From Octopus sinensis (taxonomy: Eukaryota): 64,000 bases of DNA. Both the position numbers and the translations under genes were made by a program. The notes under the pieces are model-generated. The model searched no databases and was not told the origin of the DNA. It saw nothing but the letters and a program-made list of their open reading frames with translations. This document shows, piece by piece, positions 9,743 to 56,729 of this stretch. Location of the stretch: the NCBI RefSeq assembly GCF_006345805.1, contig NC_043013.1:11718001-11782000 (forward strand), given 5' to 3'. Every line of letters begins with the position of its first letter. Position 1 is the first letter of the stretch.

Positions 9743-9965
9743 TATTGCTTTATTGCCCAGAAGGGGCCAAACATAGAGGAGACAAACAAGGACAGACAAA
9801 GGGATTAATTCGACGACATCGACTCCAGTACGTAACTGGTACATTAGTTATCGACCCCGAAAGGAAGAAAAGCAAAGTCGACCTCAGCGGAATTTGAACT
9901 CAGAACGTAACGGCAGACGAAATACCGCTAAGCATTTCGCCCGGCGTGCTAACGTTTCTGCCAGT
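9743..9965 (-). mobile_element. SINE type A, Tx1-tailed monomer
   Basis: Reverse strand CTGGCAGAAACGTTAGCACGCCGGG...TGTCTGTCCTTGTTTGTCTCCTCT...GGGCAATAAAGCAATA. Confidence 0.85.
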
Positions 9966-13340: not shown

Positions 13341-14012
13341 ATTGAGTGAGAGAGCAGTGCATGCCATCAAAGTGACACTGGGGTAAAGAATACGAAGCCC
13401 AATATACCCATCATGACTACCCGTCTGATAAAGGTACACCAGGCACATGCATCACAACCATATGTACGCGACATGGTGATCTCATATCAAGATAAACAGC
13501 ACATGACCTTGCAGGTGGGGCCGAGTTAGAATTTTCTTCAGGTTGAGTAGCCCATCCCGCTCAAAAGGTCCCCGAATAAGGGTTGTTTAAGGATGTTGAA
13601 AGAACCACCCATGTTTCCCGAGGTGAATTATTCAAACCCCAAAGAATCCCTCTCAACACATGGCTATGATGCTCCCCCACTACTTCTGCTCGTGATCAGA
13701 GATGCACATATCGTCAGCCACTAAGGGACATGCTCAACTGGTTAAGGTCAAACAACTGGCAAGCAAATCTGTGGTATTGAGCAGATATTATTATTATTAT
13801 TATTTTATTATTATTACTATTATTATTATTGAGTGAGAGAGCAGTTCATGCCATCAAAGTTACACTGGGGTAAAGAATACGAAGCCCAATATACCCATCA
13901 TGACTACCCGTCTGATAAGGGTACACCAGGCACATGCATCACAACCATATGTGCGCGACATGGTGATCTCATATCAAGATAAACAGCACATGACCTTGCA
14001 GGTGGGACCCAG
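13341..14012 (-). mobile_element. Two more 5'-truncated copies of the (TAA)n-inserted element
   Basis: ~445-bp and ~185-bp copies colinear with 10980-11521, separated by (ATT)n. Confidence 0.8.
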
Positions 14013-14066
<54 letters not shown>

Positions 14067-14107
14067 CATCATTATTATTATTATTATTATTGTTATTACT
14101 ATTATTA

Positions 14108-14963
14108 TATGAAAACTCTCAAAATATTTTGTTTGCTATGATGGAAAGTCTCAGCTGTCCACATCCAGCAGACTAAGGGGACACTTGTATACTGGTCATG
14201 CTTCAAGAACCTTGCAAAAATTCTTGCAGTTCCAAGCAAAGCTGACTTTTGTAGGTGTTCTACCTTCACACTTGCACCAATCTTTTTCAGCCATGCTGGT
14301 AGTTGAGTGCTGATACTTCCAAGCGCACCAATTACTATTGTTATCACGTCTACTCTCTTCATTAACCACAACGTTCGTATTCCCCACTTTAAATCGTAGT
14401 AGGTGTCTAGGCCAATTGTAGCAATCTTCATTGTTATTGCCAGTTGTAAAAGACAACGGCCTCCCCCCTTTCTTGGCAGATAAAGTCGTTCTGTATCTGC
14501 CTTAGGGTGGTGCATTCTATGCATTGTCAACAGTTTTCGTATTTTTCTGTCGAGCTGACATATTTCAGTAATTGACCAGTTAACGATGTTGAAACTGTAA
14601 GTCACGACTGGTATGGCTAATGCATTGATCGTTTCGATCCTGTTTCTTGCATTCAGCTCTGTCTTGAGTATTGCTCTCACTCTTCGATAACATTCTCTCC
14701 TGATCCTTTCCTTCATCTCTGAATGCCTTATTCCGTCCCCTTCAATTACGCCTAGGTACTTGTAGCTCTCCGCTGGGTCTAGTTCTTTTATGACATTCTG
14801 CTGGTCAAGGTTAACGTTAGATGTTTCTGTCATTTTTCCTTTGATAAAGGTAGCTTTTGCACATTTATCGAGTCCGAATTGCATTTTGATGTCGTCACTG
14901 AATTGTTTGACTATCGCTAGTAAGCCCTTGAGTTGTTGGTCATTTTTTGCAAATATTTTTATC
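14108..14963 (-). mobile_element. R4/Dong-like non-LTR retrotransposon fragment (RT thumb + RLE C-terminus), 5'-truncated and internally deleted
   Basis: MQFGLDKCA, YKYLGV, LDRKIRKLLT..HHPKAD.ERLYLPRKGGGR then a jump at ~14400 to YDLKW.IR.LW, IVIGALG, LQKSALLGTARI; 3' end abuts (TAA)n, the established Dong target. Confidence 0.85.
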
Positions 14964-15059
14964 AAACATTTTATATCCGTACTGCGCGTCATTGAGCGGT
15001 TTTGAGAGAGGTATTAAGGCTCATTATTATTATCATTAATATTATTATTATTATCATCA

Positions 15060-16659: not shown

Positions 16660-17056
16660 CTTTCTTCTAAAGGCCAAAAATCTTAAATTTGTTTGGAAGG
16701 GATTAGCCGTTTACACCTATCCAAGTGCTTCACTGGTATTTAATTTATCGACCCCGAAAGGATGAAAGGCAAAGTCAGCCTTGGCGGAATTTGAACTCAG
16801 AATGTAAAGACAGACGAAATACCTATTTCTTTACTACCCACAATGGGCTAAACACAGAGAGGACAAACAAGGTCAGACAAACGGATTAAATCGATTATAT
16901 CGACACCAGTGCGTAACTGGTACTTAATTTATCGACCCCCGAAAGGATGAAAGGCAAAGTCGACCTCGGCGGAATTTGAACTCAGAACGTAGCGGCAGAC
17001 GAAATACCGCTACGCATTTCGCCCGCGTGCATATGATTCTGTCAGCTCGCTACCTT
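16660..17056 (-). mobile_element. Composite SINE A: Tx1-tailed unit followed by a standard-tailed unit
   Basis: Junction AAAGAAATA|GGTATTTCG at ~16823; the downstream unit ends in the standard GGCC...TAGAAGAAAGG tail. Another degenerate A copy at 17080-17282. Confidence 0.85.
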
Positions 17057-17453: not shown

Positions 17454-17821
17454 GCAGCAGCAGCAACAACAACAACAGTAGCAACAACAACACCACTACC
17501 ACCACCACCATCATGAAAACCGCTTCGTCAGCAACAACAACAATAATAGCAGGAATAGCAAAAACAAAACGCCAACAAGGAGAACAACAACCGGTGGTAA
17601 GAATAGAAATTACCACCAATGACACACACAAGAATAAAACGGTAAGACCATGTCACACATCACCAGAAACATCACAACATCAAATCAACTACCAGATCAA
17701 CAATAGCATAGTAATAACAATAGGAAGAAGAAGAAAACAGGGTCTCAATCTAGCAAAGACAACACCAACAACAACAGTGGCAAAATGCAAAAATACTTTC
17801 TATAAAATACAAACAAACAAA

Positions 17822-18036
17822 GACGGCGAGCTGGCCGAAACGTTAGCACTCCGGGCGAAATGCTTAGCAGTATTTCCTCTATATTTACGTTCTGAGTTCA
17901 AATTTCGCCGAGGTCAACTTTGCTTTTCATTCTTTCGTGGTTGATAAAATAAGTACCAGTTGCGTTCTGTGGTCGATCTAATCGATTGGTCTCCCTCCGC
18001 AAAAATTTTGGGCCTTGTGCCTAGAGTAGAAAAGAA
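17822..18036 (+). mobile_element. SINE type A, standard tail, full length
   Basis: Head to tail ...GGCCTTGTGCCTAGAGTAGAAAAGAAT; direct repeat AAAATACAAACAAA on both sides. Confidence 0.88.
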
Positions 18037-24265: not shown

Positions 24266-24460
24266 TATCATTACTGCAACAGTAACTATCTTTAGCATAT
24301 CAGTTGTAGTTGTTGCTGTTACTGTTCTTAGAGTCCTTGCGGTAGTTATTTAGCCTCCAACCACCACCACCACCACCACAAACAATAACAACAATCCTTA
24401 ATCAGCCCAATCCCAGTACACGCGACACATGGTCCAAGACGTTTCTCACGTAGCAACGCA

Positions 24461-24836
24461 AGGCGGTGAGCTGGCAGAATCATAAGCACGCCGGGCGAAA
24501 TGCTTAGCGGTATTTCGTCTGTCGTTACGTTGTGAGTTCAAATTCCGCCGAGGTCGATAAATTAAGTACCAGTTACGCACTGGGGTTGATGTAATCGACT
24601 TAATACCTATGTCTGTCCTTGTTTGTCCCGTCTATGTTTAGCCCCTTGTGGGTAGTAAAGAATTAGATAGTTCGTCTGCCGTTACGTTCTGAGTTCAAAT
24701 TCCGCCGAGGTCGACTTTGCTTTTCATCCTTTCGGGGTCGATTAAATAAGTACCAGTCGATGTAATCAACTTAATCCCTTTCTCTTTCCTTGTTTGTCCT
24801 CTCTATGTTTAGCCCCCTGTGGGCAATAAAGAAATA
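24461..24836 (+). mobile_element. SINE type A Tx1-tailed dimer; first unit has a core deletion between GGTCGA repeats
   Basis: Head AAGGCGGTGAGCTGGCAG; two tails ending AAAGAATTA and AAAGAAATA. Confidence 0.85.
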
Positions 24837-26809: not shown

Positions 26810-27203
26810 TCTATTCTAGGCACAAGGCCAGAAATTTTTGAGGAATGTCCCTATCAGTTAGATCGATTTCAGTAAGGAAACTGGTATTTAATTTATCGAC
26901 CCCGAAAAGATGAAAGGCAAAGTCGACCTCGTTGGGATTTGAACTCACAACGTAAAGACAGACGAAATATTTATTTCTTTACTACACACAAGAGGCTAAA
27001 CACAGAGAGGACAAACAAGGACAGACAAAGGGATTATTCGATTACATCGAACCCAGTGCGTAACTGGTACTTAATTCATCGACTCCGAAAGGATGAAAGG
27101 CAAAGTCGACCTCGTTGGAATTTGAACCTAGAACGTAAAGACAGACGAAATGCCGCTAGGCATTTCGCCCACGTGCTAACATTTCTGCCAGCTCGCCGCC
27201 TTA
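26810..27203 (-). mobile_element. Composite SINE A: Tx1-tailed unit + standard-tailed unit
   Basis: Junction AAAGAAATA|AATATTTCG at ~26971; both units share the CAACGAGG and TCTGTCTTTACG variants. Confidence 0.85.
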
Positions 27204-27674: not shown

Positions 27675-28194
27675 AATATTAATATGCTCGTAATTAAACC
27701 ACTAGGAAATTTTCCTGTGAATGAAACTAAGCTGAGGATCGAAGAGGTATTGAATACTTATCAGATGTATCTTACTCTTGCAAGTCATAAACAGAGAAGC
27801 AACGGGTTAGAAAAACTATGAGAAATTATACGATTGTACTAAATAGCGTATCTGTACATTCGCTTGTAGTGCGTACTGAGTTATTAATAAGCAGAGTGAC
27901 AGTGTGAATGTGGATAAATTGCAATTAACTTCGTATACATACGTTTCGATAATTGTAACTTCAATCTCACCGAGGTAGCAAACCTCACAATCATACAAGA
28001 ATGATATCTCTATGAATGAAACTAAATAACTAAATGTGGGAAACGAATTATTGCCTACTTATTGAATGTATCTACTCCGGTTAGTCGTAAAGAGAGAGGC
28101 AACTTAGAGCTGCTTAGAAGTAAAATGCGATTTTATTCAAAAGAATAACAATACATTCGTTGACAGCGTGTATTCAATGGTTACATTCTCTAGA

Positions 28195-28607
28195 GGTGGC
28201 GAGCTGGCAGAAACGTTAGCACGCCGGGCGAAATGCTTAGCGGTATTTCGTCTGCGTTACGTTGTGAGTTCAAATTCCGCCGAGGTCGACTTTGCCTTTC
28301 ATCCTTTCGGGGTCGATAAATTAAGTACCAGTTACGCACTGGGGTCGATATAATCGACTTAATACCTATGTCTGTCCTTGTTTGTCCCCTCTGTGTTTAG
28401 CCCCTTGTGGGTAATAAAGAAATAGGTATTTCGTCTGCGTTACGTTGTGAGTTCAAATTCCGCCGAGGTCGACTTTGCCTTTCATCCTTTTGGGGTCGAT
28501 AAATTAAGTACCAGTTACGCACTGGGGTCGATGTAATCGACTTAATACCTATGTCTGTCCCTGTTTGTCCTCCTCTGTGTTAGCCCCTTGTGGGTAATAA
28601 AGAAATA
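28195..28607 (+). mobile_element. SINE type A with Tx1-like tail, head-to-tail dimer
   Basis: Full unit plus a second unit starting at GGTATTTCG (28425); both end GCCCCTTGTGGGTAATAAAGAAATA. Perfect 16-bp TSD GGTTACATTCTCTAGA (28179-28194, 28608-28623). Confidence 0.92.
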
Positions 28608-30339
28608 GGTTACATTCTCTAGACAAATTGTATAAATTCACGTAATTAGGCTCAATAAACGTAGACCCATAAACAGTTTTACAAACAGGTAACAAAACGC
28701 TCGAGTTAAGACATGGGGATATTAAAGCAGGAAGAACCTCAGAACAGCTTGACTGGTTTCTGCCGTTATGGCGGTCTTAGTAAAATCGTTCACTCTCATT
28801 CGTTCTGTAAGATAGCGGAAGCTACTTCGAGCTACATCTGAAAACAAAACAAAAATGCAACTGCATGATATACGCCGCGAGGCTGAGTGATTATTTAATA
28901 AACGCACGCATGTGAACTCATCACGAATTTATTGATTTATTTTCATAATCTTTACTGAAAACAGACATACGATCGTTTATTACTGTTGCGGTTATTGTTG
29001 ATACGAGAATTGAGGTTGTTGGTTTGATACCGTTGATGTTTTCGTAGATTTTAGAGTTAGCTTCAGCTGTTGAAGAAACAGTAGTAGCTGTTTTTGTTGT
29101 TGTCTAAAGTTGTTGGTGTTGCTAAAGATGTTACTGTTGTTGGTGGTGCTGTTGTTGTTGTTGTTGTTACTCTAGTTTTATTTTTTTTCTCAATTTAGAC
29201 GTTCCAGTTTAGTTTTTCACTGTGTTGGTTACCGGAGTTGCTGTTTCCACTACTACGACTACGATTAGCGACGTCTTTGATCTTATAGTAGTAGTAGTAG
29301 TAGTAGTAGTAGTAGGAGGAGGAGGAGGAGGAGGAGGAGGAGTAGCAGTAGTAATAATAGTAGTGAGAGGAACAAGAAAAGAAGGAAGAACGTGAAGAAA
29401 AAGGGGAAAATAGAGAAAAAGTAGCAGATGATGATGATGATGACGATGATAATGATGATGATGAAGCAAGAAGAAGAAGAAGAAGACGAGAAGAAGAAGA
29501 AGAAAGAGATGACAATGAAGGAAGCTGAGGAGGAGGAGGAGGAGGAGACGAGAAGGAGGAGAAGAAGACGAGAAGGAGGAGAAGAAGACGAGAAGGATGG
29601 GTAGTAGTAGTAGTAGTAGTAGTAGTAACTGTTGTTGCTGTTGTTTATTTGTTTCCGACATTTGAATCTGGTTCTCAGAAACCAGTGGTTATTGAAGTCA
29701 GTTCCTACCACTCACACAACTTAAACTACACCTAACGTTGCTGTTCAAGTTCTCCATGTTCCTCTTCTTGAAAACATTAGTAGTATTAGTAATATTAGTA
29801 GCAGTTGCCGTTGTTTATCAATTTAGACGTTTCAGTATAATATTTCTTTATTTTATTTTATTTTGTTTTTCTCTCTGTTTTCTTTTTATTATATATTCCC
29901 TGAGACTTGCTTGTCAGAAATGCTGTCGAAAATGATTTTATTATTGTTGTTGTTTTTATTGTTTTTGTTGTTGTTTTTTTTTATGAATTTAGACGTTTGA
30001 AGATGTTTTTCATCGACTTGTTGTTAGTGTTGCTGTTTCAACTACTGCCAACACCGTTTGTTGTTGTAGTTGTTGTTGTAGTAGTTGTTGTCGCTACTGC
30101 TGTTGCTGAGGCGAATGTTTATCAGGTGAGACACTCGAAAATGTCTTTAGACATGTTCTAGCATTCACACTACTTTTTGATAGAGCCATCACCATTTCCA
30201 CTACTAATTTTACTAATACTACCACCACAACCACCACCAACACTGCTACTACTACTACCACTACTACTACTACTACTGACAATAATAATAATAGCACCAC
30301 AGTTATTATTAATTATTACTACTACCACTAATAATCTTT

Positions 30340-30744
30340 TCTACTATAAGCATAAGGCTTGAAATTTTCGGGAGGGTTACAGTCGATTACCTCAAGCCCC
30401 AGTACTCAACTGGTACTTATTTTATCGACCCTTAAAGGATGAAAGGCACATTCGACTCCGGTGGAATTTGAACTCAGAATATAGCGACGGCGAAAACACC
30501 TATTTCTTTACTACCTATTTCTTTACTACCTACAAGGGGCTAAACACAGAGAGGACAAAGACTGACAAACAGATGAAGTCGATTATATCGACGCCAGTGC
30601 GTAACTGGTACTTATTTAATCGACCCCGAAAGGATGAAAGGCAAAGTCGACCTCGGTGGAATTTGAACTCAGAACGTAGCGGCAGACAAAATACGGCTAC
30701 GCATTTCGCCCGGCGTGCTAACGATTCTGCCAGCTCGCCGCCTT
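30340..30744 (-). mobile_element. Composite SINE A: young Tx1-tailed unit upstream of an older standard-tailed unit
   Basis: Duplicated terminus GGTAGTAAAGAAATA-GGTAGTAAAGAAATA then GGTGTTTTCG; the downstream unit is more diverged. Confidence 0.85.
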
Positions 30745-31172: not shown

Positions 31173-31610
31173 TAGTAGTAGCAGCAGAAGCAGCAGCAGC
31201 AGTAGTAGTAGTAGTAGTAGTAGTAGTAGTTGCTGATGCTGTTTTTGTTGTTACTCTGCAGTTGTTGCTGTTGTTGGAATTTATTAATCTATACCCGCGA
31301 TTCTTGATCAAAACGTGAAGATCCCTGAGAAAATATAGAGGAATTGGCGAGTGAAAATACTTGGTGGAACTGGAAAGCTCTTTACCATTGCACTTGAGGA
31401 AAGGCGGACTGTCAGTTAAAACGCAATCACTTCTGGGATTTTTTATCGATTAAGATCATTAGTAGTCAAAGTGTTTTTACCACAAACTGTGACGTCATCC
31501 ATGAAAACTGCTTCTCTTACTCCTTCTTTCAAGGAATCATTCCCAGCTCATTGTTTACATTTCGGCTTCTAATGGTTTATTTTATCCAGTTTGGTATTTA
31601 TCAGAGGGTG

Positions 31611-32438
31611 AAGGCGGCGAGCTGGCAGAATCGTTAGCACGCCGGGCGAAATGCGTAGCCGTATTTCGTCTGCCGTTACGTCCTGAGTTCAAATTCCGCC
31701 GAGGTCGACTTTGCCTTTCATCCTTTCGTGGTTGATAAATTAAGTACCATCTACCCACTGGAGGTCGATATAATCGACTTAATACCTATGTCTGTCCTTG
31801 TTTGTCCTCTCTGTGTTTAGCCCCTTCGGGGTAGTAAAGAAATAGGTATTTCGTCTGCCGCTGCGTTCTGAGTTCAAATTCCGCCGAGGTCGACTTTGCC
31901 TTTCATCCTTTCGGGGTTGATAAATTAAAGTACCATCTACGCACTGGGGGTCGATGTAATCGACTTAATACCTATGTCTGTCCTTGTTTGTCCTCTCTGT
32001 GTTTAGCCCCTTGTGGGCTGAGTTCAAATTCCGCCTGTGTTTAGCCCCTTGTGGGTAGTAAAGAAATAGGTATTTCGTCTGCCGCTGCGTTCTGAGTTCA
32101 AATTCCGCCGAGGTCGACTTTGCCTTTCATCCTTTCGGGGTTGATAAATTAAGTACCATCTACGCACTGGGGGTCGATGTAATCGACTTAATACCTATGT
32201 CTGTCTTTGTTTGTCCTCTCTATGTTTAGCCCCTTGTGGGTAGTAAAGAAATAGGTATTTCGTCTGCGGCTACGTTCTGAGTTCAAATTCCGCGGAGGTC
32301 GACTTTGCCTTTTATCCTTTCGGGGTTGATAAATTAAGTACCATCTACGCACTGGGGGCCGATGTAATCGACTTAATACCTATGTCTGTCCTTGTTTGTC
32401 CTCTCTGTGTTTAGCCCCTTGTGGGTAGTAAAGAAATA
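31611..32438 (+). mobile_element. SINE type A with Tx1-like tail, tetramer (185-bp period)
   Basis: Junctions GAAATA|GGTATTTCG at 31844/5, 32068/9 and 32253/4; 15-bp TSD GGTATTTAT(C/G)AGAGG at 31593-31607 and 32439-32453; small internal rearrangement at ~32018-32035. Confidence 0.92.
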
Positions 32439-33860
32439 GGTATTTATGAGAGGCTTATCTGGTGTTCGAACACGGTTTTCTACATTTAGTCTCCCATTTA
32501 GTGACGAATTTAATGAAGCTAATGCAAAAATTAATATTTAATGCTCATGTTATTGCATGAATTGTCTTATTATAGAAGACTAAATTAATTTTCACTTTTA
32601 AGTGTGGTTGTGCTGGATTCCGCATTCGTAAAAATGTTGCACGAAAACAATAGGAAAGAGTTTAAAAATATTGGATTAAACACTAGACGTGCGCATGTGT
32701 GAGATACAAATATGCGTGAAGTGTTTTGCTCAAGAACACAACGCGTCGCCCGGTCCAGGAATCGAAACCGCAATCTTACGATCATGATGCTGACACACTA
32801 ACCGCTAAGCGAAGCGCCTCCACACAGGTCTCTCCTGTGTGTACAATTTTGTAAACCCTATTTGTAAATGAAACACATGTAATAGTGAATGAATAATAAA
32901 AAAAAATTTCCCAATCTTTTGTTTTGAAATGTAATTACATCGCAAAAAAAATGTACAAGAAAATTTATCGCCAAGGTGCGGTGCAGTGCAATTGAACCTC
33001 AAACCTCGTAGTTGCAAAGCAAATTTCCAAAACATACAAAAATGTAGAATAATGATGAAAAGTACTTCAGTTGTGCCGAGTATGTTTTTCTATACGCAGG
33101 GAGCGGTTAACTACATCACCGAATGTATTATTTTCCAAAAGGAACCAGAATGATGTAAGGAGATTGGACTACTATTTCTAGCAGATACAAAAATCACTTA
33201 GAGTCTCTCCCATTTCTTGGGGATGATCGTAGTGGTAATGGCACTAGTAATGTTGTTGACTTATCTGCTGTTATGTATCAATTATAGTCTAAGTAAATTT
33301 TAAGTAACTTACGGTATATGGTTAAGAAATCTCTCTCGAGAACACTTCTCCAAACACTGGATTATAATATATTACCGGGGGAGATATCAGCCTATGTTAT
33401 TACTTAGTAGCAGTGGGAAACAAACAAATCTACCTCGCCCAAAAATAAAATCAGTCTCATATGACGAGAAAACGCTTATAAATTTGTGCGTGTCTGCCTG
33501 TCTGTGTGTGTGCGTGAGTGTGCATGTGTCTCTGTGTGTGTTTTTGTGCCACACAGTCATAGATGTTAAATACAGTTCCTTTTAAAATATGATTAAGTAT
33601 ATCAACATAACATTTGCTATTAGGGAACTCAATGATAAGCAGAGGAAAATTTGATGCAAATTTCATCATAGCAGTGACTTCGTATTTTACCTAATGGTTT
33701 ACCAAAGCAATATATATGCAATCATACGCATACGCACACGCAAATTCATTCGGAAACACACATATATGCATACATAAATGAATTGACAATAGATATTAAT
33801 TCTGATGCATTTGTATACACACACAGACATATGCATGTACATATATATATGTATATAAGT

Positions 33861-33899
<39 letters not shown>

Positions 33900-34027
33900 T
33901 ATTTTATTCTTTTATTCTTTTATTCCTTTCAGTCATTTTGACTGCGGGCATGCTGGAGCACCGCCTTTAGTCGAGCAAATCGACCCCATGACCTATTGCT
34001 TGTAAGCCTAGTACTTATTCTATCGGG

Positions 34028-34099
<72 letters not shown>

Positions 34100-34508
34100 A
34101 CACACACACACCACACACACACACACATATATATATATACAACGGGTTTATTTCAGTTTCCGTCTACCAAATCCATTCACAAGGCTTTGGCCGGCCCGAG
34201 GCTATCGTAGAAGACATTTCCCCAAGGTGTCACGTAGTGGGACTGAACCTGGAACCATGTGGTTGGTTAGCAAGCTACTTTATTTCATATAATTTGCCAT
34301 TTAGGCATTTACAAAGAGGGGACAAACAAGGACAGACAAATATAAAGAGTGAAGTAGCTTAACACAGTTACAATTTTCGAATGAAATTACGGATAAGATT
34401 ATAAGCAATGAATTTTACGAAGGCAATGTTTAAAAATATTAATGATCATGTCGAAGGACGGACATCCAGCCATCCGGGTAGAACCTTTACTTTCTGATCC
34501 GGTCACAC

Positions 34509-37500
34509 TTACCTGGTGCCAAACATACCCATCTTGTATGCCACAGGCTTCCATCTTTTCACAAACATATCTCGTGACAGACACCTCTTCTCCAGCCTGA
34601 TTTTGCTACTGAGGTGGTAACTAAAAAAGTTAATCAACCCCTGGCCGGAGACAAAGGTGCCTGTCACTATACCTTTCGTACGCGTCTTCCATACTGTTTC
34701 TTTCAGTATGGCTACTACACAGAAAAAACAAGCCTTTCTTTCCCTGTTAAGGAAAGGGGGCGGCACAATCTCGATGATAGACTCAGCTGATAGCTGTACT
34801 CTTCCCATCACTGACAACAGTTGTTCAACAAAAGCTATCAGTCCCGATAACTCCGGACACTCCACGAATGCGTGCAAGACGGTCTCCCTATCCTGCTCAC
34901 ATCGCGGGCATGTCGGCGAGACGGCACTACCGTGCCTTGACAGCTTGTCGCGAACAGGTAAAGCCGCACGGAACACTGCCAGGCAGGGATTTCTGGTAAT
35001 TATCCAGATACCCCGGCCCGAACGTCCTCCGGAACAGGTTGACCAACTGATTTTCATCGTATCCCAGGGTCTCCCCCAAGGCGTCTTCGGACTTAATCTC
35101 CACTAACCCGCTATAGAAATCCGTGGTGGAACTCCTGTTGCCGGCGTTGCCCACCCGAGATAGTAGCTGGAGCGCCTGACGGCACTCCAAATGCCATTCA
35201 CTCAGTTTAGGTCTCCGCTTGATCCATGCACCGTTAGGGATGTTAACTGGGGAAGGTAGAACCGGACGTGCGGTGACCACACCTGCTCTCCATCCAGGTA
35301 AAGCCAGAGGTGCCTCAACCTTAACGCGAGTTTTCGCATCCTCAGCCAAGGCATCCCTAGCCCACCCTTTAGCGGTTTCTGGCAGCAGACAGAGCGCTTT
35401 ACAAGTGGCTTTCCTCCTTTCCACAAAAATCGGAAAAGGATTCTCTCCAACTTGTTCAGCCACAAATCGGGGCAAGGCACCACGGTCAGACGGTAGGTGA
35501 TTACTGATGCTATAAACATCTGCACCACCTCCGCCTTCCCTAGCAGGGATAACGCCCGCCCAGACCAGGTCTGGGTTAGAGCGGTCACCTTGTTGGCCAC
35601 CTCACTCCAATTTTTCTCAATCTGGAGGTCTGGCCCGAACCAGACTCCGAGCAGCTTAACAGGACCTTCCGTCCAACGCCCTACGACGTTATTGGACGGC
35701 ATCGGCTTGCCCCTCCAGGTGCCGAGTTGCAAACCGACCGACTTGTCCTTGTTAACCTTTGCTCCTGCCACCGCCTCGTAGCATTTGATGGCCTCTTCCA
35801 CCACTGGAAGCTGGCCTTCGTCTGCCACGATGATGGAGGTGTCATCCGCATACGCCGTAGCTCCTCTTCCACACCATAGATCATGCGGCGCGCCCCCTAG
35901 TGCCTCCAACTTCCGCAGCAAAGGCTCAAGAGCCAATACGTATAGGAGCGAGGACAGGGGACACCCTTGACGAACTGAACGCTCGATCCTGAACGGCTTC
36001 GAAAAGGAACCGTTCACCTTGACTACAGACTCGATGTCGCTATACAAAGCAGCGATCCAACCTCGAAAGGTCGGGCCTAGGCCAGCCTCTCCGAGGACCG
36101 CCGCCAGGTACCGATGGTCGACCCTATCAAATGCTTTGGACTGGTCTAAATGTACCAGTGCTCCCCCTACGCCAGAAAGCTTCCCCACCCTCTCTAAGGA
36201 GTAGCGTATAAGGTGGAGATTGTCGTGGATCGTTCTGCCGGGGATAGCGCACGTTTGCGCTTCCCCGACAAGTTTGTCCACGACCCGCGCCAACCTTTTT
36301 GCTAGCACCTTGGCCAGAATCTTTAACTCTGTGTTTAACAGAGTTATGGGCCTGAAGTTCCCTATCTCGTCCCCCTTGTTCGGGTCCTTCCTGATCAATG
36401 TCACCGCCCCCCGGCTCGCAGACTTGGGAATTCTCCCATTCTGCTGCCAGTTGGCGTAGACGCTAGCCAGCAGGTGCCCGAACAAGTCTGGCATACTTCT
36501 ATAAAATTCATAGGGCAGACCATCGAGACCCGGCGACTTCTCCCCGGGGCACTTGCCCAACACCTCGATTACTTCCTCGGCTGTGATTGGCCCTACACAG
36601 CACTCAGCCTCTCGTGTCGAGAGGCGCGGGCCACCAGACAGGAAGTCCCTAAGGGCCTCACCATGATCCAGCGTCCCGCACCTCCCGAACAACTCGGCGA
36701 AGTGCTTGTGAAGTGCCTCACACATCTCGTCCCGCTTCTTGATCGTGCATCCGTTTTCATCAACAAGAGACCCAATTGTGGCATCGTTTCCACGCTGTGT
36801 TTCTATCGTACGGGCCCATCCGGCAACATTAATTCCCTCACGGCCCAATGCTCGTACTTTAGCCCGGACTCTACATCCCTCATGTTTGGTTTTGAGGTGA
36901 CGGTCTAATGCCGTTCTCGCCGCTAAAATGTGAGATGCAGAGCCCAACCTCAACGCCTCCTCTAAGTTCTTAACTAGTTGCCCTTCTATTCTAGCCCTAT
37001 CTAGTCTTAGTTGTTTACTAAATCTAATGGACTCGAATCGAATGGCTCTTTTGAGGGTGAACCACCACCGGTTATTAACCACGGCTCCGGTTAACGCCCT
37101 CTGCACTAACACCTTAATCCGGCTACGGTATGCCTCGCGTGTCAAAATAGACTTGTTCAGCTTCCAGTAGCCGGTTCCTATCTTAAGTGTGCTATCTATG
37201 TCCAGTCTACACGTGACCATTCTATGGTCAGTATAGGGCACCTGGACGAGCTGTGGACAACTAAAACTAGACTTATCTCTAGTTCTTATCACTATCCTGT
37301 CTAGATAAGACTTGAACCTTCCGTCGCCACTCATCCAGGTCCACTCTGGGACGTTCGGATGGTCAAGTCTGTAACGATCTGCCAGCTGAAACCGCTTAAG
37401 CAGATCCACGAGACGTGAGTTCACTTTCCTATAGATCGAGCCAACGCTATCGATGTGTACGTCAACGATAGCATTAAAGTCCCCTAATATCACTAAAGTC

Positions 37501-37901
37501 TTCGACGTCACGAGAAAGCCCTCTAGGCGCCGATAAAAATCAGTTTGGAAACCTCTAGCACAAGGTGCATAGAGTCCGATCAACCTGAAGGCCTTACTGC
37601 TGTATGTCACATCAAGGACGACCAGTCCACCTTCTGGGTCTACATAGACTGTACTTGTCTGTAGAGCCAAGTCTTTACGGATCAGTACCACTACGCCCCC
37701 TCGCCCTCCGGTCTGGCCAGGAGACATGATTTTCTCGTAGCCATTCAGGAGAGGCGAGAAGGTTTGTAGGCTGTCCAGCTTGGTCTCTGTAGCAACCATC
37801 ACATGTATATCATGTGATCTGAGGTCGTCGAGGAAACAAGCCTGCTTCCACTTCGAACTCAGACCACGCACATTTAAACAACCAAGGTTAAGCGAAGCCA
37901 T
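34509..37901 (-). CDS. Tx1 ORF2p, APE endonuclease / reverse transcriptase, frameshifted near the C-terminus
   Basis: APE motifs LNVRGL, ATETK, LGDFNA, SYLDRI, TDH; RT motifs KSPGLDGLP, NFRPITLLN, LDQSKAFDRVDH, VRQGCPLS, YADD, KLLGVWF. Frame changes at ~35233 and ~34985; C-terminal CPRC...H...C (34509-35057 frame). Confidence 0.92.
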
Positions 37902-37952
37902 TACAAAAGTAAAAGTTCTACTTACATTTCGTTGGAGAGGTGGGGGCCGATC

Positions 37953-39317
37953 TCACCACACGTTTGGGGCCCCTTTCTCCTCTTTCTTCAGATAGTCCGG
38001 CAAGTTCGCGATATGCCGGATGGCGTTTGGGTGTCTGTCTTTTAATTGTTTGAACGTTGTTTCCGCAATCCACGCGTGTCTATTTCGATCTTTGTATTTG
38101 TTGTACAGTCTTGCTGACTGATGCTGAACCACAATATCGTTTATGTATTTGTCTTGTGTGTCGAATTCAATTAATATGAGTTCATTTTCTTTTTTGTCTT
38201 CTTTTTCTGGGCCAGTTGAGCGGGATTTTTTTTTCCGTGTCTGTGGTGTGTTTTTGTTTTTATTATTTTTTGTAGGGGATGTGGACGGGGATGCTGCACG
38301 AATTCTTTTACGAATTGGTGTAAATCCCCCCTCTGATACCTCCATGGTATCGTCTGGGGTAGCAATAGTTTGTTCGGTAGGCGCCGCAGTTTTTAGGGGG
38401 GTGGGAGGTTTTAATAGTGTAGGGGTTTGTGAGTGCGAGGGCTGGGGTTTTTCTTCAGTCTGTTTTGGGGTTGGCACCGTAACAGCAGGAGTGGGATTTT
38501 TTGTTTTTGTAGGGGTATGTGTGTTTGCAAGGGTAGGGACTTTTTTATTATCTGAGGGGCCTGGTGTCTGCGGTTTCTTTTGCTTGTCTGGACAGTCTAC
38601 ACGAATGTGGCCCTTTTTGCCGCAGGCGTAACAGGTGGGTTTTCGGCCTTCGACCTGTACCCTGAGGGCTACGTTCTCGCCCACGAGCACCCTCTCAGGA
38701 AGGAGCTGCAGGTCCTCCGCTGTTCCTTGAATTAATATATTAATGTTACGCCCGAGCCAAAATAGAGGGGCAGAGCATGTTACTTGTAGTATTTTTATTT
38801 TGTCCGCCCTTTTATATAACAGGGCGGCCACTACCTCTACCGGATCTACTTCCGGCGGGGCTTCTACAATCCTGACCCGGGACGTCCTGCGTCTCCTATA
38901 GCTTGGGAAAAGTACCACCTCCTTGATTTTTAGGGGGTTCACAGAATGCCCGCGGGCCATTTCTTCCCCCGAGAAGCGGACATCCACAGTGCCATATTCC
39001 CGTCCCCTGGCGACGTACACGATGTCCTTCCAAATCGGGGAGAGGCATTTCTCGATGGTGCTTTTTTCAAAGTGTTTGAACCTTCTGCTTTGTGGACAGA
39101 AAGTTTTAAACACTACGGTCCGCTTCTCGGTCTCCACCATACTGGCGGAGGGTGATATTTTAACATCACCACCCTCCTCTTGCATTCTTTTAAATAGCTC
39201 GACGAGCTGGTTGACATCGATGTCAATGTTCTCGGTAGCCAATGCGGCTACCGCAGAAAATTTTTTAACATTGCTCTCCTCAAGAGCACTACTTTCGTGA
39301 ATAATTTCAACAGACAT
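37953..39317 (-). CDS. Tx1 ORF1p, gag-like nucleic-acid chaperone with zinc knuckle
   Basis: Open frame of ~454 aa from ATG 39317 (MSVEIIHES); CX2CX4HX4C knuckle CYACGKKGHIRVDC followed by a Pro/Thr/Lys-rich low-complexity region. Confidence 0.9.
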   Translation of the reverse strand: MSVEIIHESSALEESNVKKFSAVAALATENIDIDVNQLVELFKRMQEEGGDVKISPSASMVETEKRTVVFKTFCPQSRRFKHFEKSTIEKCLSPIWKDIVYVARGREYGTVDVRFSGEEMARGHSVNPLKIKEVVLFPSYRRRRTSRVRIVEAPPEVDPVEVVAALLYKRADKIKILQVTCSAPLFWLGRNINILIQGTAEDLQLLPERVLVGENVALRVQVEGRKPTCYACGKKGHIRVDCPDKQKKPQTPGPSDNKKVPTLANTHTPTKTKNPTPAVTVPTPKQTEEKPQPSHSQTPTLLKPPTPLKTAAPTEQTIATPDDTMEVSEGGFTPIRKRIRAASPSTSPTKNNKNKNTPQTRKKKSRSTGPEKEDKKENELILIEFDTQDKYINDIVVQHQSARLYNKYKDRNRHAWIAETTFKQLKDRHPNAIRHIANLPDYLKKEEKGAPNVW

Positions 39318-39754
39318 TATTCTGTTGAAATTAGACAACACAAAAATTACGAGTATTGGTTTCCCACAAAACTGGGAAACCTATAGAAAGTTTTTCTTCC
39401 AAAGTAGTTCAAAAAAGCAGTTCAAAAATTCCAATTCCCACCCCCATTCGGGGGAGGGGCACGAAAATAGTCTGGCAGGACTATATATAGTCACGTAAAT
39501 AAAAAGCCACAGTGGCTAACAGTTCAACGGTAAGAAATTATTCAATTATTTCCCGGTAAATCCGGAGAACAAGACAGTTCAGCAACGTTTAAAGGCAAAT
39601 TTTCAGTAGTAGGAATTCAACAATTAACAACACAGCAAAACTCTTACCGGGAAGAAAACGCGTCCAAACCGTAGTACGGTAAGCAAAGTCACTCTTCTGT
39701 CAGTGAGGTTAGCAAGCTACTTACCACACAGCCACTCCTGCGCCTAAAATATTG

Positions 39755-39848
39755 TGCCCCAGGTGAGGATCGAACTCACACCCTTCAGAGTCGTCTGACT
39801 TTATTCTTGATTATGAGACTGACGCGCTGCCTAATGCGCTACCGTATA
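39755..39848 (-). tRNA. Elongator tRNA-Met(CAT) copy with 21-nt intron, probable pseudogene (positions 1-4 replaced by TATA)
   Basis: CGGTAGCGCATTAGGCAGCGCGTCAGTCTCATA-[ATCAAGAATAAAGTCAGACGA]-CTCTGAAGGGTGTGAGTTCGATCCTCACCTGGGGCA closely follows metazoan elongator tRNA-Met; insert at canonical 37/38; TTTT at 39746-39749. Confidence 0.85.
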
Positions 39849-41032: not shown

Positions 41033-41448
41033 GGTTTCAAATTTTGACACTAGGCCAGCAGTTTTAGGGAAGAGGCCAGGTAAAATAAATCAACCCATGC
41101 TGAAATAATACATATTTTATCGACCCTGAAATTCAACCTTGGCAGATTTTGAACTGAGAACGTAGCGACGAATGACAGACCACTAAACATCTTGCCAAAC
41201 GTGCTAACGATTCTTATTTCTTTATTGCCCACATGGGGTTAAACATAGAGGGGACAAACAAGGACAGACAAATGTATTAAGTCGATGATATCGACCCCAG
41301 TGCGTAACTGGTACTTATTTAATCGACCCCAAAAGGATGAAAGGCAAAGTCGACCTCGGCGGAATTTGAATTCAGAACGTAACGGCAGACGAAATACGGC
41401 TACGCATTTCGCCCGGCGTGCTAACGATTCTGCCAGCTCACAAGCTTA
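41033..41448 (-). mobile_element. Composite SINE A: Tx1-tailed unit + older standard-tailed unit
   Basis: Junction AAAGAAATA|AGAATCGTTAGC at ~41215; direct repeat ACTAGAAATATT flanks the composite. Confidence 0.82.
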
Positions 41449-53870: not shown

Positions 53871-54279
53871 AGGCGCAAGAGTGGCTGTGTGGTGAGTAGC
53901 TTGCTTACCAGTCACATGGTTCCAGGTTCAGTCCCACTGCATGGCACCTTGGGCAAGTGACTTCTACTATAGCCTCGAGCCGACCGAAGCTTTCCCTGAG
54001 GATTTGGTAGACGGATAATGAAAGAAGCCCGTCGTATCTATATACATATACATGTATGTGTGTGTGTGTTTGTGTGTCTGTGTTTGTCCCCCCAACATCG
54101 CTTGACAACCGATGCTGGCGCGTTTACGTCCCGGTAACTTGGCGGTCAGTAAAAGAGACCGATAGCCTAAGTACTAGGCTTACAAAGAATAAGTCATGGG
54201 GTCGATTTTTTCGACTATAGGCAGTGCTCTAGCATTGCGGCTGCCAAATTACTGAAACAAGTAAAAGAGTAAAAGAGTA
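53871..54279 (+). mobile_element. SINE type B, full length (tRNA head, CORE-like CCTTGGGCAAGT, internal microsatellite, GAGTAAAA tail)
   Basis: A/B boxes TGGCTGTGTGG and GGTTCAGTCCC. Other copies at 20770-21180(+), 23110-23450(-), 57360-57720(+); fragments at 1985-2275, 9420-9545, 22815-22975 and 54440-54600. Confidence 0.88.
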
Positions 54280-54814: not shown

Positions 54815-56093
54815 ACATTACGCCATATGGGGGAAGATCTCATTCCATGTTCAAGCTCTCGCTAAACCTTGCAATGAAGAGTCTCAAATGCGCAACATTC
54901 GCAACAATTTGCAATAGCAACAGTTCTCCAACAAACTTGCCTCATTGTTTAGGACGAGTGCACTGTCACAGTGGTACTTGACTGTACCCTCCAAATAATA
55001 GTACGCTCATGGGGGGAGTAAGAGTTCTTCTTGCAAGAGATGTTTTCGTTAAACGTTGCCAGTTATCCCCAAAGGAACAAAAGCTGATGAGGTCAATGCA
55101 TACTTCAAAAAATCGTACCTTTGAAGACATGTGATAGAACTTCGTCTTACAAGCAATATCAGAGTTCTTCTACAAGGTGATTATACGGCCTTCTTAAGAT
55201 TCGTAATATGATATTAACATTCAACTCAAGACTTCAGTTACATGAAATTCCATGCGGTCAAATGATACTTTCTCTTAGGGATCTTATGGATAAAATATTT
55301 CCTAATCTATCTGTCAATTACACTGATGTAAACTGGCTATGTGAAAGAGCTATACTAGCACCAACTAATGAAACAGTTGGTAAACTCAATCATCAACTTC
55401 ATAAGGTAACAGACACATCAGAAACGACTTTTCCATCCATTGACAACAGTTGATCAAGATCAGGTTGTCCAATACCCTGTTGAATTTCTGAACACACTTA
55501 AACCCATTTGGATGCCACTGCATAATTTGACACTAACACTGGGTGCTCTCACTATGTTGCTTTGGAATCTTGACCCATCTCACTTGTGTAATGGAACTCG
55601 CTTAATTATGACTTCCATGAAGCTCCATGTAATACAGGCAACAATAAGAACAGGTAGTCACAAAGGAGAATATATCTTTATTCCAAAAATTCTTCTCATT
55701 CTTATAGTTGTTCCATTTGAAATTAAGACGCTTCAGATTCCAGTCAAACTAAGTTTTGGTATTTCAATTCATAAATCTCAGGGTCAATCCCTCAAGGTAG
55801 TTGCACTTGATTTTTATGCTACATGCTTCTCCCACGGCCAACTCTATGCTGCTTGCTCGCAAATTGGAAGCAGATACAATATTCATTTCGATAACATAAA
55901 ATTACACAATGAATATTGTTTACCCTGAGATACTTCAACATTGACAAATTTTCAGTTCAAAATTCTATTATCATTACAATTTGGCTATTTAAAAGATTAA
56001 ATGTAGATATTTTGAAATAATTATGAGAATATATGTTTATATTTATTGTTTACTTATCTGAATAACCCGGGCAACGTCAGGTCATTCAACTAG
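54815..56093 (+). mobile_element. Helitron relic: decayed PIF1-family helicase plus 3' terminus
   Basis: GGRSHSMFKLSLN, TLPVIPKGTKADEVNA, WLCERAILAPTNE, YPVEFLN, LCNGTRL, SIHKSQGQSL, FSHGQLYAACS across broken frames; subterminal hairpin ACCCGGGCAACGTCAGGT then CTAG|T at 56090-56094. Confidence 0.9.
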
Positions 56094-56500: not shown

Positions 56501-56729
56501 AGGCGAGCTGGCAGAAACGTTAGCACACCGGGCGAAATGCTTACCGGTATTACGTCTGCCGTTACGTTCTGAGTTCAAATTCCGCCGAGGTCGACTTTGC
56601 CTTTCAGCCTTTCGGGGTCGATAAATTAAGTACCAGTTACGCACTGGGGTCGATGTAATCGACTTAATCCGTTTGTCTGTCCTTGTTTGTCCCCTCTGTG
56701 TTTGGCCCCTTATGGGTAGTAAAGAAATA
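56501..56729 (+). mobile_element. SINE type A Tx1-tailed monomer nested in an old minus-strand SINE B (56330-56815)
   Basis: Intact head, core and Tx1-like tail; flanks TGTCAAGCGGTGAT and GACGAACACAAAC continue the SINE B sequence. Confidence 0.85.

Follow-up and report, generated by a model that had tools for sequence, protein, structure and literature searches.

A high-copy octopus SINE shares a hairpin-bearing 3′ tail with Tx1-type LINEs and, in many copies, the landing site of one Tx1 family

We analyzed a 64,000-nucleotide stretch of the Octopus sinensis genome (hereafter the window; NCBI RefSeq assembly GCF_006345805.1, contig NC_043013.1, positions 11,718,001 to 11,782,000 of the forward strand), focusing on an abundant short interspersed element (SINE), SINE-A, and on a full-length long interspersed element (LINE) of Tx1 type, Tx1-a. 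Tail sharing is the rule between SINEs and their LINE partners of the L2, CR1 and RTE groups. In the octopus, one 3′ tail was a feature common to SINE-A, to the Tx1 families Tx1-a to Tx1-e, and to derivatives that keep only the first open reading frame (ORF1). Because this hairpin-bearing tail is common to the SINE and the Tx1 group, and a landing site is common to the SINE and one Tx1 family, SINE-A is likely copied by Tx1 enzymes. We regard its movement in trans by Tx1-clade proteins as very probable, and the lineage of the Tx1-d family as the somewhat favored candidate for its main partner. SINE-A, SINE-B (a second SINE), Tx1-a to Tx1-e, and HAL-g (an ORF1-only element) are working labels.

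The tail of Tx1-a was identical to that of one SINE-A copy over 27 nt (34315–34341 against 41247–41273; longest common substring 27) and to that of another over 26 nt (56672–56697), which confirmed the matches reported in an earlier analysis of the window from its letters alone (the original prediction). The 26-nt core occurred exactly at 34315, 41247 and 56672. The window contained 13 matches to this core at three or fewer mismatches, against 0 in 100 shuffles; reversed-pattern controls also gave 0, and a chance match was thus ruled out. The LINE and its flanks were placed as follows (window coordinates, strand; TSD, target-site duplication).

34281..39706, −: full-length Tx1-type LINE (Tx1-a), 5.4 kb
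37953..39317, −: Tx1-a ORF1, with a CCHC zinc knuckle
34509..37901, −: Tx1-a ORF2, with APE endonuclease, reverse transcriptase and zf-RVT; frameshifted near its 3′ end in the window copy
34281..34341, −: Tx1-a 3′ tail, with the 27-nt SINE-identical tract and a hairpin, ending A-rich but not in poly(A)
34265..34280, −: 16-bp TSD, downstream copy, within the SINE-B head
39707..39745, −: 5′ portion of the SINE-B head with the TSD copy on the upstream side; co-transcription is probable in the Tx1-a family
33900..34280, −: rest of the SINE-B copy split by Tx1-a

The SINE-A copies were placed as follows; types C and T, and sites 1 and 2 of the SINE-A head, are defined below.

9743..9964, −: Tx1-tailed, C type, single copy
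16824..17050, −: Tx1-tailed, then at site 2 an older other-tailed SINE-A
17820..18036, +: older tail with a same-loop hairpin; TSD of ~14 bp (by eye)
24460..24836, +: Tx1-tailed dimer
26972..27202, −: Tx1-tailed, then at site 2 an older other-tailed SINE-A
28195..28607, +: Tx1-tailed dimer joined at head site 2, with an outer 16-bp TSD; in its first unit, site 1 is 28208/28209 and site 2 is 28241/28242
30516..30744, −: Tx1-tailed, then at site 2 an older other-tailed SINE-A
31608..32438, +: Tx1-tailed four-unit array, with an outer 15-bp TSD
41215..41439, −: Tx1-tailed, C type, lying within an older other-tailed SINE-A, at site 1 of its head
56501..56729, +: Tx1-tailed, T type, single copy

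The tail was present in every Tx1-a copy examined: 30/30 top copies from a query with six flanking bases, 30/30 from a flank-free query, and 20/20 of the first 20 among 70 pattern matches (the three sets overlap). The original prediction had raised the concern that other copies might lack the motif, a single Tx1 copy having caught a fragment of a SINE, and this was thereby ruled out. Beyond Tx1-a, related tails were carried by five further Tx1 families or fragments and by several ORF1-only (HAL1-like) elements, all on a common plan of pyrimidine tract, hairpin with a 5-nt loop, and A-rich end without poly(A). Tx1-b, which adjoins ATT repeats and was traced using a relative's C-terminus as query, had a diverged tract and a SINE-like hairpin at 29/30 loci (one was interrupted). 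The tail of Tx1-d, a family traced via a fragment in locus L203, was found at 30/30 loci. Tx1-c and Tx1-e showed a related tail at one locus each, as did one decayed copy. Identity in ORF2 among Tx1-a, Tx1-b and Tx1-d was 60–69%. The ORF1-only elements had the related tail at 30/30 loci of HAL-g and at further loci. The 1.75-kb HAL-g unit has a 448-codon ORF1-like frame (33–45% identical to Tx1-a ORF1, in pieces), and a search of it for ORF2 gave no match; HAL-g is thus HAL1-like in having ORF1 only and a parent-type 3′ end.

Several further observations concern these families. Tx1-b (L061–L090) is abundant and young, with several natural open frames of ~1,145 codons. ORF1-only derivatives of ~1.7 kb with the same tail were seen at L330–L359, L310, L113, L360 and L365, and as many as 8 HAL-g units, spaced 1.75 kb apart, stand in tandem; HAL-g inserts at site 1 of the SINE-A head. 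Copies of Tx1-c type (L200:4240-8600, L203:4096-6050) lie at one fixed position of another repeat, with a TSD of ~18 bp in L200; this repeat appears similar to a Penelope-type terminal repeat.

Over the last 33 nt, identities to the SINE numbered 18 for Tx1-a, 27 for Tx1-d and 29 for the ORF1-only HAL-g (the latter two ungapped); the Tx1-a slice was 1 nt short, and that of the C-type SINE was 2 nt short, only its longest-substring value being used. Tx1-a was the poorest match among the 11 LINE-type tails compared. All 13 tails in our alignment folded into a short stem with a loop of 4–8 nt, mostly 5. Pairing was seen in 77% of the alignment cells, against 43–50% with slid partners, and the covariation score was reached by 10/500 shuffles. 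We concluded that structural support for a conserved hairpin is real, if modest.

SINE-A has the properties expected of a SINE: it is short (~230 nt), non-coding, dispersed, TSD-flanked and of high copy number. Its terminal 22-mer had 104,717 exact occurrences, and the reversed-pattern control had 0. The head shows A- and B-box-like motifs by eye and is likely tRNA-derived; ARAGORN called 0 genes, and Rfam gave no match up to E 10 on 28180–28440. Among 38 tail matches in a 600-kb sample (sixty 10-kb stretches at round coordinates, two of which adjoin the window), 33 reached the identical last base, without poly(A) or terminal repeat. The flanks were studied in a set of 177 distinct complete SINE ends, drawn from all loci except flank-selected ones. 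The 103 ends outside SINE-A heads had flanks with a loose 5-nt consensus, and a TSD was found for 42 of them (8–22 bp, median 15). In the window, the duplications flanking Tx1-a (34265–34280 / 39707–39722) and two SINE-A arrays (28179–28194 / 28608–28623; 31593–31607 / 32439–32453) were 16, 16 and 15 bp long, as originally described, the last with one mismatch. The SINE thus bears Tx1-like signatures in its TSDs and precise 3′ end, whereas its target differs from that of Tx1-a.

Tx1-a inserts into the head of SINE-B. The 3′ flank of every copy examined started at one fixed SINE-B head position, and 28/30 flanks in the flank-free set ran on into SINE-B; sequence-specific insertion with a TSD was found in 30/30 copies of that set and in 20/20 of the pattern matches. 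The target of Tx1-d is instead the SINE-A head, at a point (site 2; 28241/28242 in the window copy) that lies between its A and B boxes. This was so at 30/30 loci and, as read by eye, in ~97 of the 100 pattern matches listed first out of 138, with a 16-bp TSD. SINE tails lay exactly at the Tx1-d site 25,341 times, compared to 19 times at the Tx1-a site, where they were one base off register relative to Tx1-a junctions; both reversed-pattern controls gave 0. Tx1-d and T-type SINEs have this one nick in common, and ORF1-only elements and C-type SINEs have a second, site 1, located 33 nt upstream of site 2. Junctions ran into other-tailed SINE-A in 12/60 cases at site 2 and 7/10 at site 1 (these loci were not random), and full-length SINEs with a 13–16 bp TSD at site 2 made up 6 of the first 100 of 129 matches. 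These other-tail junctions and TSD-flanked full-length SINEs therefore represent genuine insertion at the Tx1-d nick.

Median pairwise identity of SINE-A was 0.82 for older-tail copies (28 copies), 0.88 for C type (4) and 0.93 for T type (25); it was 0.97 for Tx1-d (30 top matches, a sample biased toward young copies) and 0.986 for Tx1-a (19). Tx1-a has only 70 exact copies. Given its youth, its low copy number and its different target, this family is unlikely to have been the main force behind the SINE. The original prediction that a Tx1 mobilizes SINE-A is thus partly supported, for the clade but not for the element in the window as partner.

We compared the two sides of the LINE insertions as well. 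The 5′ end region was reached by all 12 fetched Tx1-a copies (L208–L219) and by 17/18 Tx1-d copies (L312–L329), and the SINE head was doubled in Tx1-a copies L218 and L219. Upstream and downstream TSD copies of Tx1-a were identical in 8/13 cases; two of these duplications carry target-specific variants, indicating true TSDs. The upstream copy deviated in the other 5/13, four of which had one inserted base in common, and in Tx1-d the upstream ‘TSD’ copy tracked the variant of the 5′ untranslated region. Because the upstream copy differs in Tx1-a and follows the element in Tx1-d, our data suggest that the LINE transcript includes a SINE head, which assists 5′ end joining. Target co-transcription was proposed for SINEU by Kojima (2015; PMC4494074), who cites like 5′ joining for R2.

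SINE-A falls into C and T types according to a single base at the hairpin foot, and this base was linked to the target. Among C-type ends the first flank base was A 41 times and G 7 times, against 13 and 89 times, respectively, among T-type ends (p = 3e-18; non-array sites only, p = 2e-10). T type accounted for 98 of the first 100 matches listed at site 2, and C type for 92 of the first 100 listed at site 1 (loop-variant subset). This association suggests either two endonucleases serving two subfamilies or read-through RNA that pairs with the target. The first option, in which Tx1 endonucleases alone choose the target, one per subfamily (Tx1-d for T type; for C type and ORF1-only elements, a family yet to be found), with no RNA pairing, is a credible contender that we lean against. 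It fits the clearly separate targets of separate Tx1 families, and the apparently greater age of C type relative to T type, as judged from the identities above. However, no autonomous site-1 family appeared among the matches listed, HAL-g has a T-type tail yet inserts at site 1, Tx1-a copy L028 has 8 target-like bases before a shifted site, and the upstream head sequence follows the element subfamily in both Tx1-a and Tx1-d.

Among the LINEs, only Tx1-a has the exact 27-nt block of the SINE, the other Tx1 families having diverged forms of the tract. The block may reflect donation by the lineage or capture by the founder of Tx1-a. A transfer from the SINE to that founder, by template switch or gene conversion, would be compatible with copying of the SINE by Tx1 enzymes, and we consider it possible but rather doubtful. 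The relative youth of Tx1-a, the diverged tracts of its relatives, and a >1000-fold excess of SINE tails over Tx1-a copies are consistent with such a capture; on the other hand, all Tx1 tails have a related tract in the same place, so that descent alone can explain the block, and no intermediate was found. It is less likely still that Tx1-a or its direct ancestor donated the tail and drove the SINE expansion, with the last 30 nt and the target changing later. The exact block, the same last six bases, the common 16-bp TSD, and the 19 SINE tails at the Tx1-a site would all fit that history, but those 19 are out of 104,717 and out of register, none of the 70 exact Tx1-a copies has a SINE-type end, a pairwise identity of 98.6% makes the family younger than the SINE, and its last 33 nt match the SINE worst. 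Lastly, it is very improbable that the Tx1-derived tail is a mere passenger and that the SINE owes its movement to an abundant LINE from a different clade (RTE-BovB, R4/Dong or CR1): coleoids show some of their strongest enrichment for these clades (PMC8967140) and the Tx1 families with a matching target are small, but the SINE has its last bases in common with Tx1-d and HAL-g, is without a terminal microsatellite, shares the nick and TSD length of Tx1-d, and shows no resemblance by eye to the R4/Dong-like 3′ ends seen.

We consider it probable that a Tx1-tailed SINE is copied in trans by a tail-binding ORF2 protein, most likely of the Tx1-d lineage. RNA polymerase III would transcribe the SINE and pass its tail by a few bases, since the copy read lacks four consecutive T residues. 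The ORF2 protein is predicted to bind the pyrimidine tract and hairpin in place of a poly(A) end, and its endonuclease would nick a loose purine-rich site. Pairing between the read-through bases and the freed primer probably contributes to site choice, and would set precisely where reverse transcription starts. When the target is a SINE head, the end of the cDNA could pair with the homologous head sequence upstream; this would produce seamless head-to-tail arrays, which may later also grow by duplication. A broader scheme is tentative, and we would not expect all of it to hold. It supposes a stringent guild of several Tx1 families with one tail hairpin, which home to tRNA-SINE promoters and whose own transcripts bear a SINE head; a tail-bearing SINE would be steered back into its own head by read-through RNA pairing, so that one ORF2 would use RNA-dependent sites, and several percent of the SINE load in the genome would have arisen in this manner.

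A number of results weigh against copying by the Tx1-d lineage as set out above. With regard to the hairpin, the number of doubly changed pairs was reached by 215/500 shuffles, and two of the 13 alignment rows (Tx1-c and Tx1-e) were out of register. The SINE tail matches Tx1-a in its 5′ block and Tx1-d in its 3′ block, and Tx1-d is without the exact 5′ tract; the whole 58-nt SINE tail was found on no non-SINE element in the first 100 of 992 matches or among 70, in searches whose exclusion letters can miss a family. Exact terminal matches of Tx1-d numbered 138, versus >104,000 SINE tails. The sampled Tx1-d copies (97%) are younger than T-type SINEs (93%), and the driver would therefore be an ancestor of Tx1-d. 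Tx1-d is nearly strict for its site, whereas the SINE ends elsewhere in 103/177 cases. Same-type junctions, which may be duplications, comprised 45/60 of those at site 2, and our search for an autonomous site-1 family returned only SINEs and ORF1-only elements among the matches listed.

SINE-A carries several tail types on one head and core. The tail of the copy at 17822–18036 had been called unrelated; it holds a 4-bp hairpin with a 5-nt loop identical to that of the Tx1-type SINE tail. In the older tails (window 17990–18036 and 56 other copies), the closing pair was standard in 51/57, with three pair types, and TSDs were found for 3/57 by a script that needed an intact head motif. Given this same-loop hairpin, a tail swap away from a non-Tx1 partner is unproven. 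These older tails may come from another Tx1 lineage or from another clade; no LINE with the older tail type was found in this analysis. Octopus SINEs named OK, OR1 and OR2, with a tRNA head, a core and exchangeable tails, were reportedly described by Ohshima and Okada in 1994. SINE-A may belong to the MetaSINEs, which it appears to resemble.

Assignment of the window element to a class was based on its proteins and its insertion habit. Pfam matches were zf-CCHC (24.9 bits, cut-off 20.8), Exo_endo_phos, RVT_1 and zf-RVT. ORF2 matched human L1 ORF2 at E 2e-66 (residues 6–870) and R2 at E 4e-20; it belongs to the L1 group and is not R2-type. The nearest named proteins were those of Argonauta hians. 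Because protein searches returned no named Tx1 reference relative, we apply the name Tx1 provisionally, on the basis of architecture, host and targeting. None of the sequence sets listed as containing the element is recorded as RNA. Presumed-RNA contigs from four runs covered 28–30 of 30 Tx1-a bins; start, end and strand were not readable in them, and they were not used as evidence. A tRNA-like sequence (39760–39844, −; Rfam score above the gathering cut-off, with a 23-nt insert and, by eye, a CAT anticodon) lies 15 nt upstream of the SINE-B head that bears Tx1-a.

Three other features of the window were noted. The middle of SINE-B (54071–54094; L048) includes a tract that differs at 5 positions from the 24-nt core of the Tx1 tail and may be a low-complexity chance match. 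A 3′ fragment of another LINE (14000–15013, −) ends in AAT repeats and had no Pfam match; by its motif it resembles R4/Dong elements. A decayed open frame at 55410–55928 (+) resembles a Helitron Pif1-type helicase.

Tx1-moved SINEs (SINEU) and L1-tailed SINEs of plants and algae are already known. In crocodilians, Tx1-Mar was inferred to be the mover of SINEU from a shared target inside another transposon (PMC4494074). The octopus system is similar in its tandem insertions, in SINE-like heads on some Tx1 5′ ends, and in the co-transcription of targets proposed for both. In contrast, SINEU have small nuclear RNA heads and poly(A) tails, and the available part of that paper reports no LINE with the SINEU-1 3′ end, whereas SINE-A has a tRNA-like head, a Tx1-shared tail without poly(A), and its own head as target. 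Strict targets in repeats, microsatellites and small-RNA genes are likewise described for the APE-type LINEs Tx1L (in Tx1D), Keno, Kibi and Koshi (PMC4494074); the octopus families differ in their targets (tRNA-type SINE heads, an ATT microsatellite, another repeat) and in the common tail of several families.

Among the 58 SINE/LINE pairs of Ohshima (2013; PMC3747384), only 3 are L1-tailed, all from plants or a green alga; they include ZmSINE2/3 with LINE1-1_ZM and SINEX-3_CR with L1-1_CR. These pairs are of the stringent type, with a conserved 3′ stem-loop common to the SINE and an L1-clade LINE, and SINE-A and Tx1 likewise share a 3′ tail with a stem-loop, with modest covariation. The octopus pair differs in involving the animal Tx1 group and in site-specific insertion; the algal pair ends in poly(A), and the five mentions of ‘Tx1’ in that paper all fall outside its table of pairs. 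ORF1-only non-autonomous LINEs, including HAL1, are also known (PMC5786205). HAL-g resembles HAL1 in that an ORF1-like frame is directly followed by the 3′ tail, and differs in being Tx1-derived, site-specific and arranged in 1.75-kb tandem arrays. MetaSINEs are defined by a 66-bp Meta domain after a tRNA-Thr-like head and resemble SINE-A in their conserved core and exchangeable tails, and probably in their tRNA head; Nishihara (2016; PMC4824008) describes their tail exchange with partner LINEs unknown, and ‘Tx1’ has 0 occurrences in the text available. Octopus repeat papers, in their available parts, list L1-Tx1 and SINE classes without pairing them. ‘TX1’ in PMC4176376 refers to mutant names and not to the Tx1 clade. 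We found no description of a Tx1-tailed SINE in the literature searched, which lay outside Repbase, Dfam, SINEBase and subscription journals.

PMC3747384 leaves open whether the L1 group recognized a specific 3′ RNA structure ancestrally or only poly(A), and the case there rests on three plant and algal pairs. If our interpretation is true, a Tx1-tailed SINE of >100,000 copies, together with a hairpin kept across Tx1 elements that are 60–69% alike, would extend the question to animals and open it to direct assay. Such a SINE would also name the partner LINE for one large octopus SINE expansion, and possibly for a MetaSINE. In addition, RNA-guided site choice by an APE-type LINE would have a natural test in the way the first target base follows the SINE subfamily.
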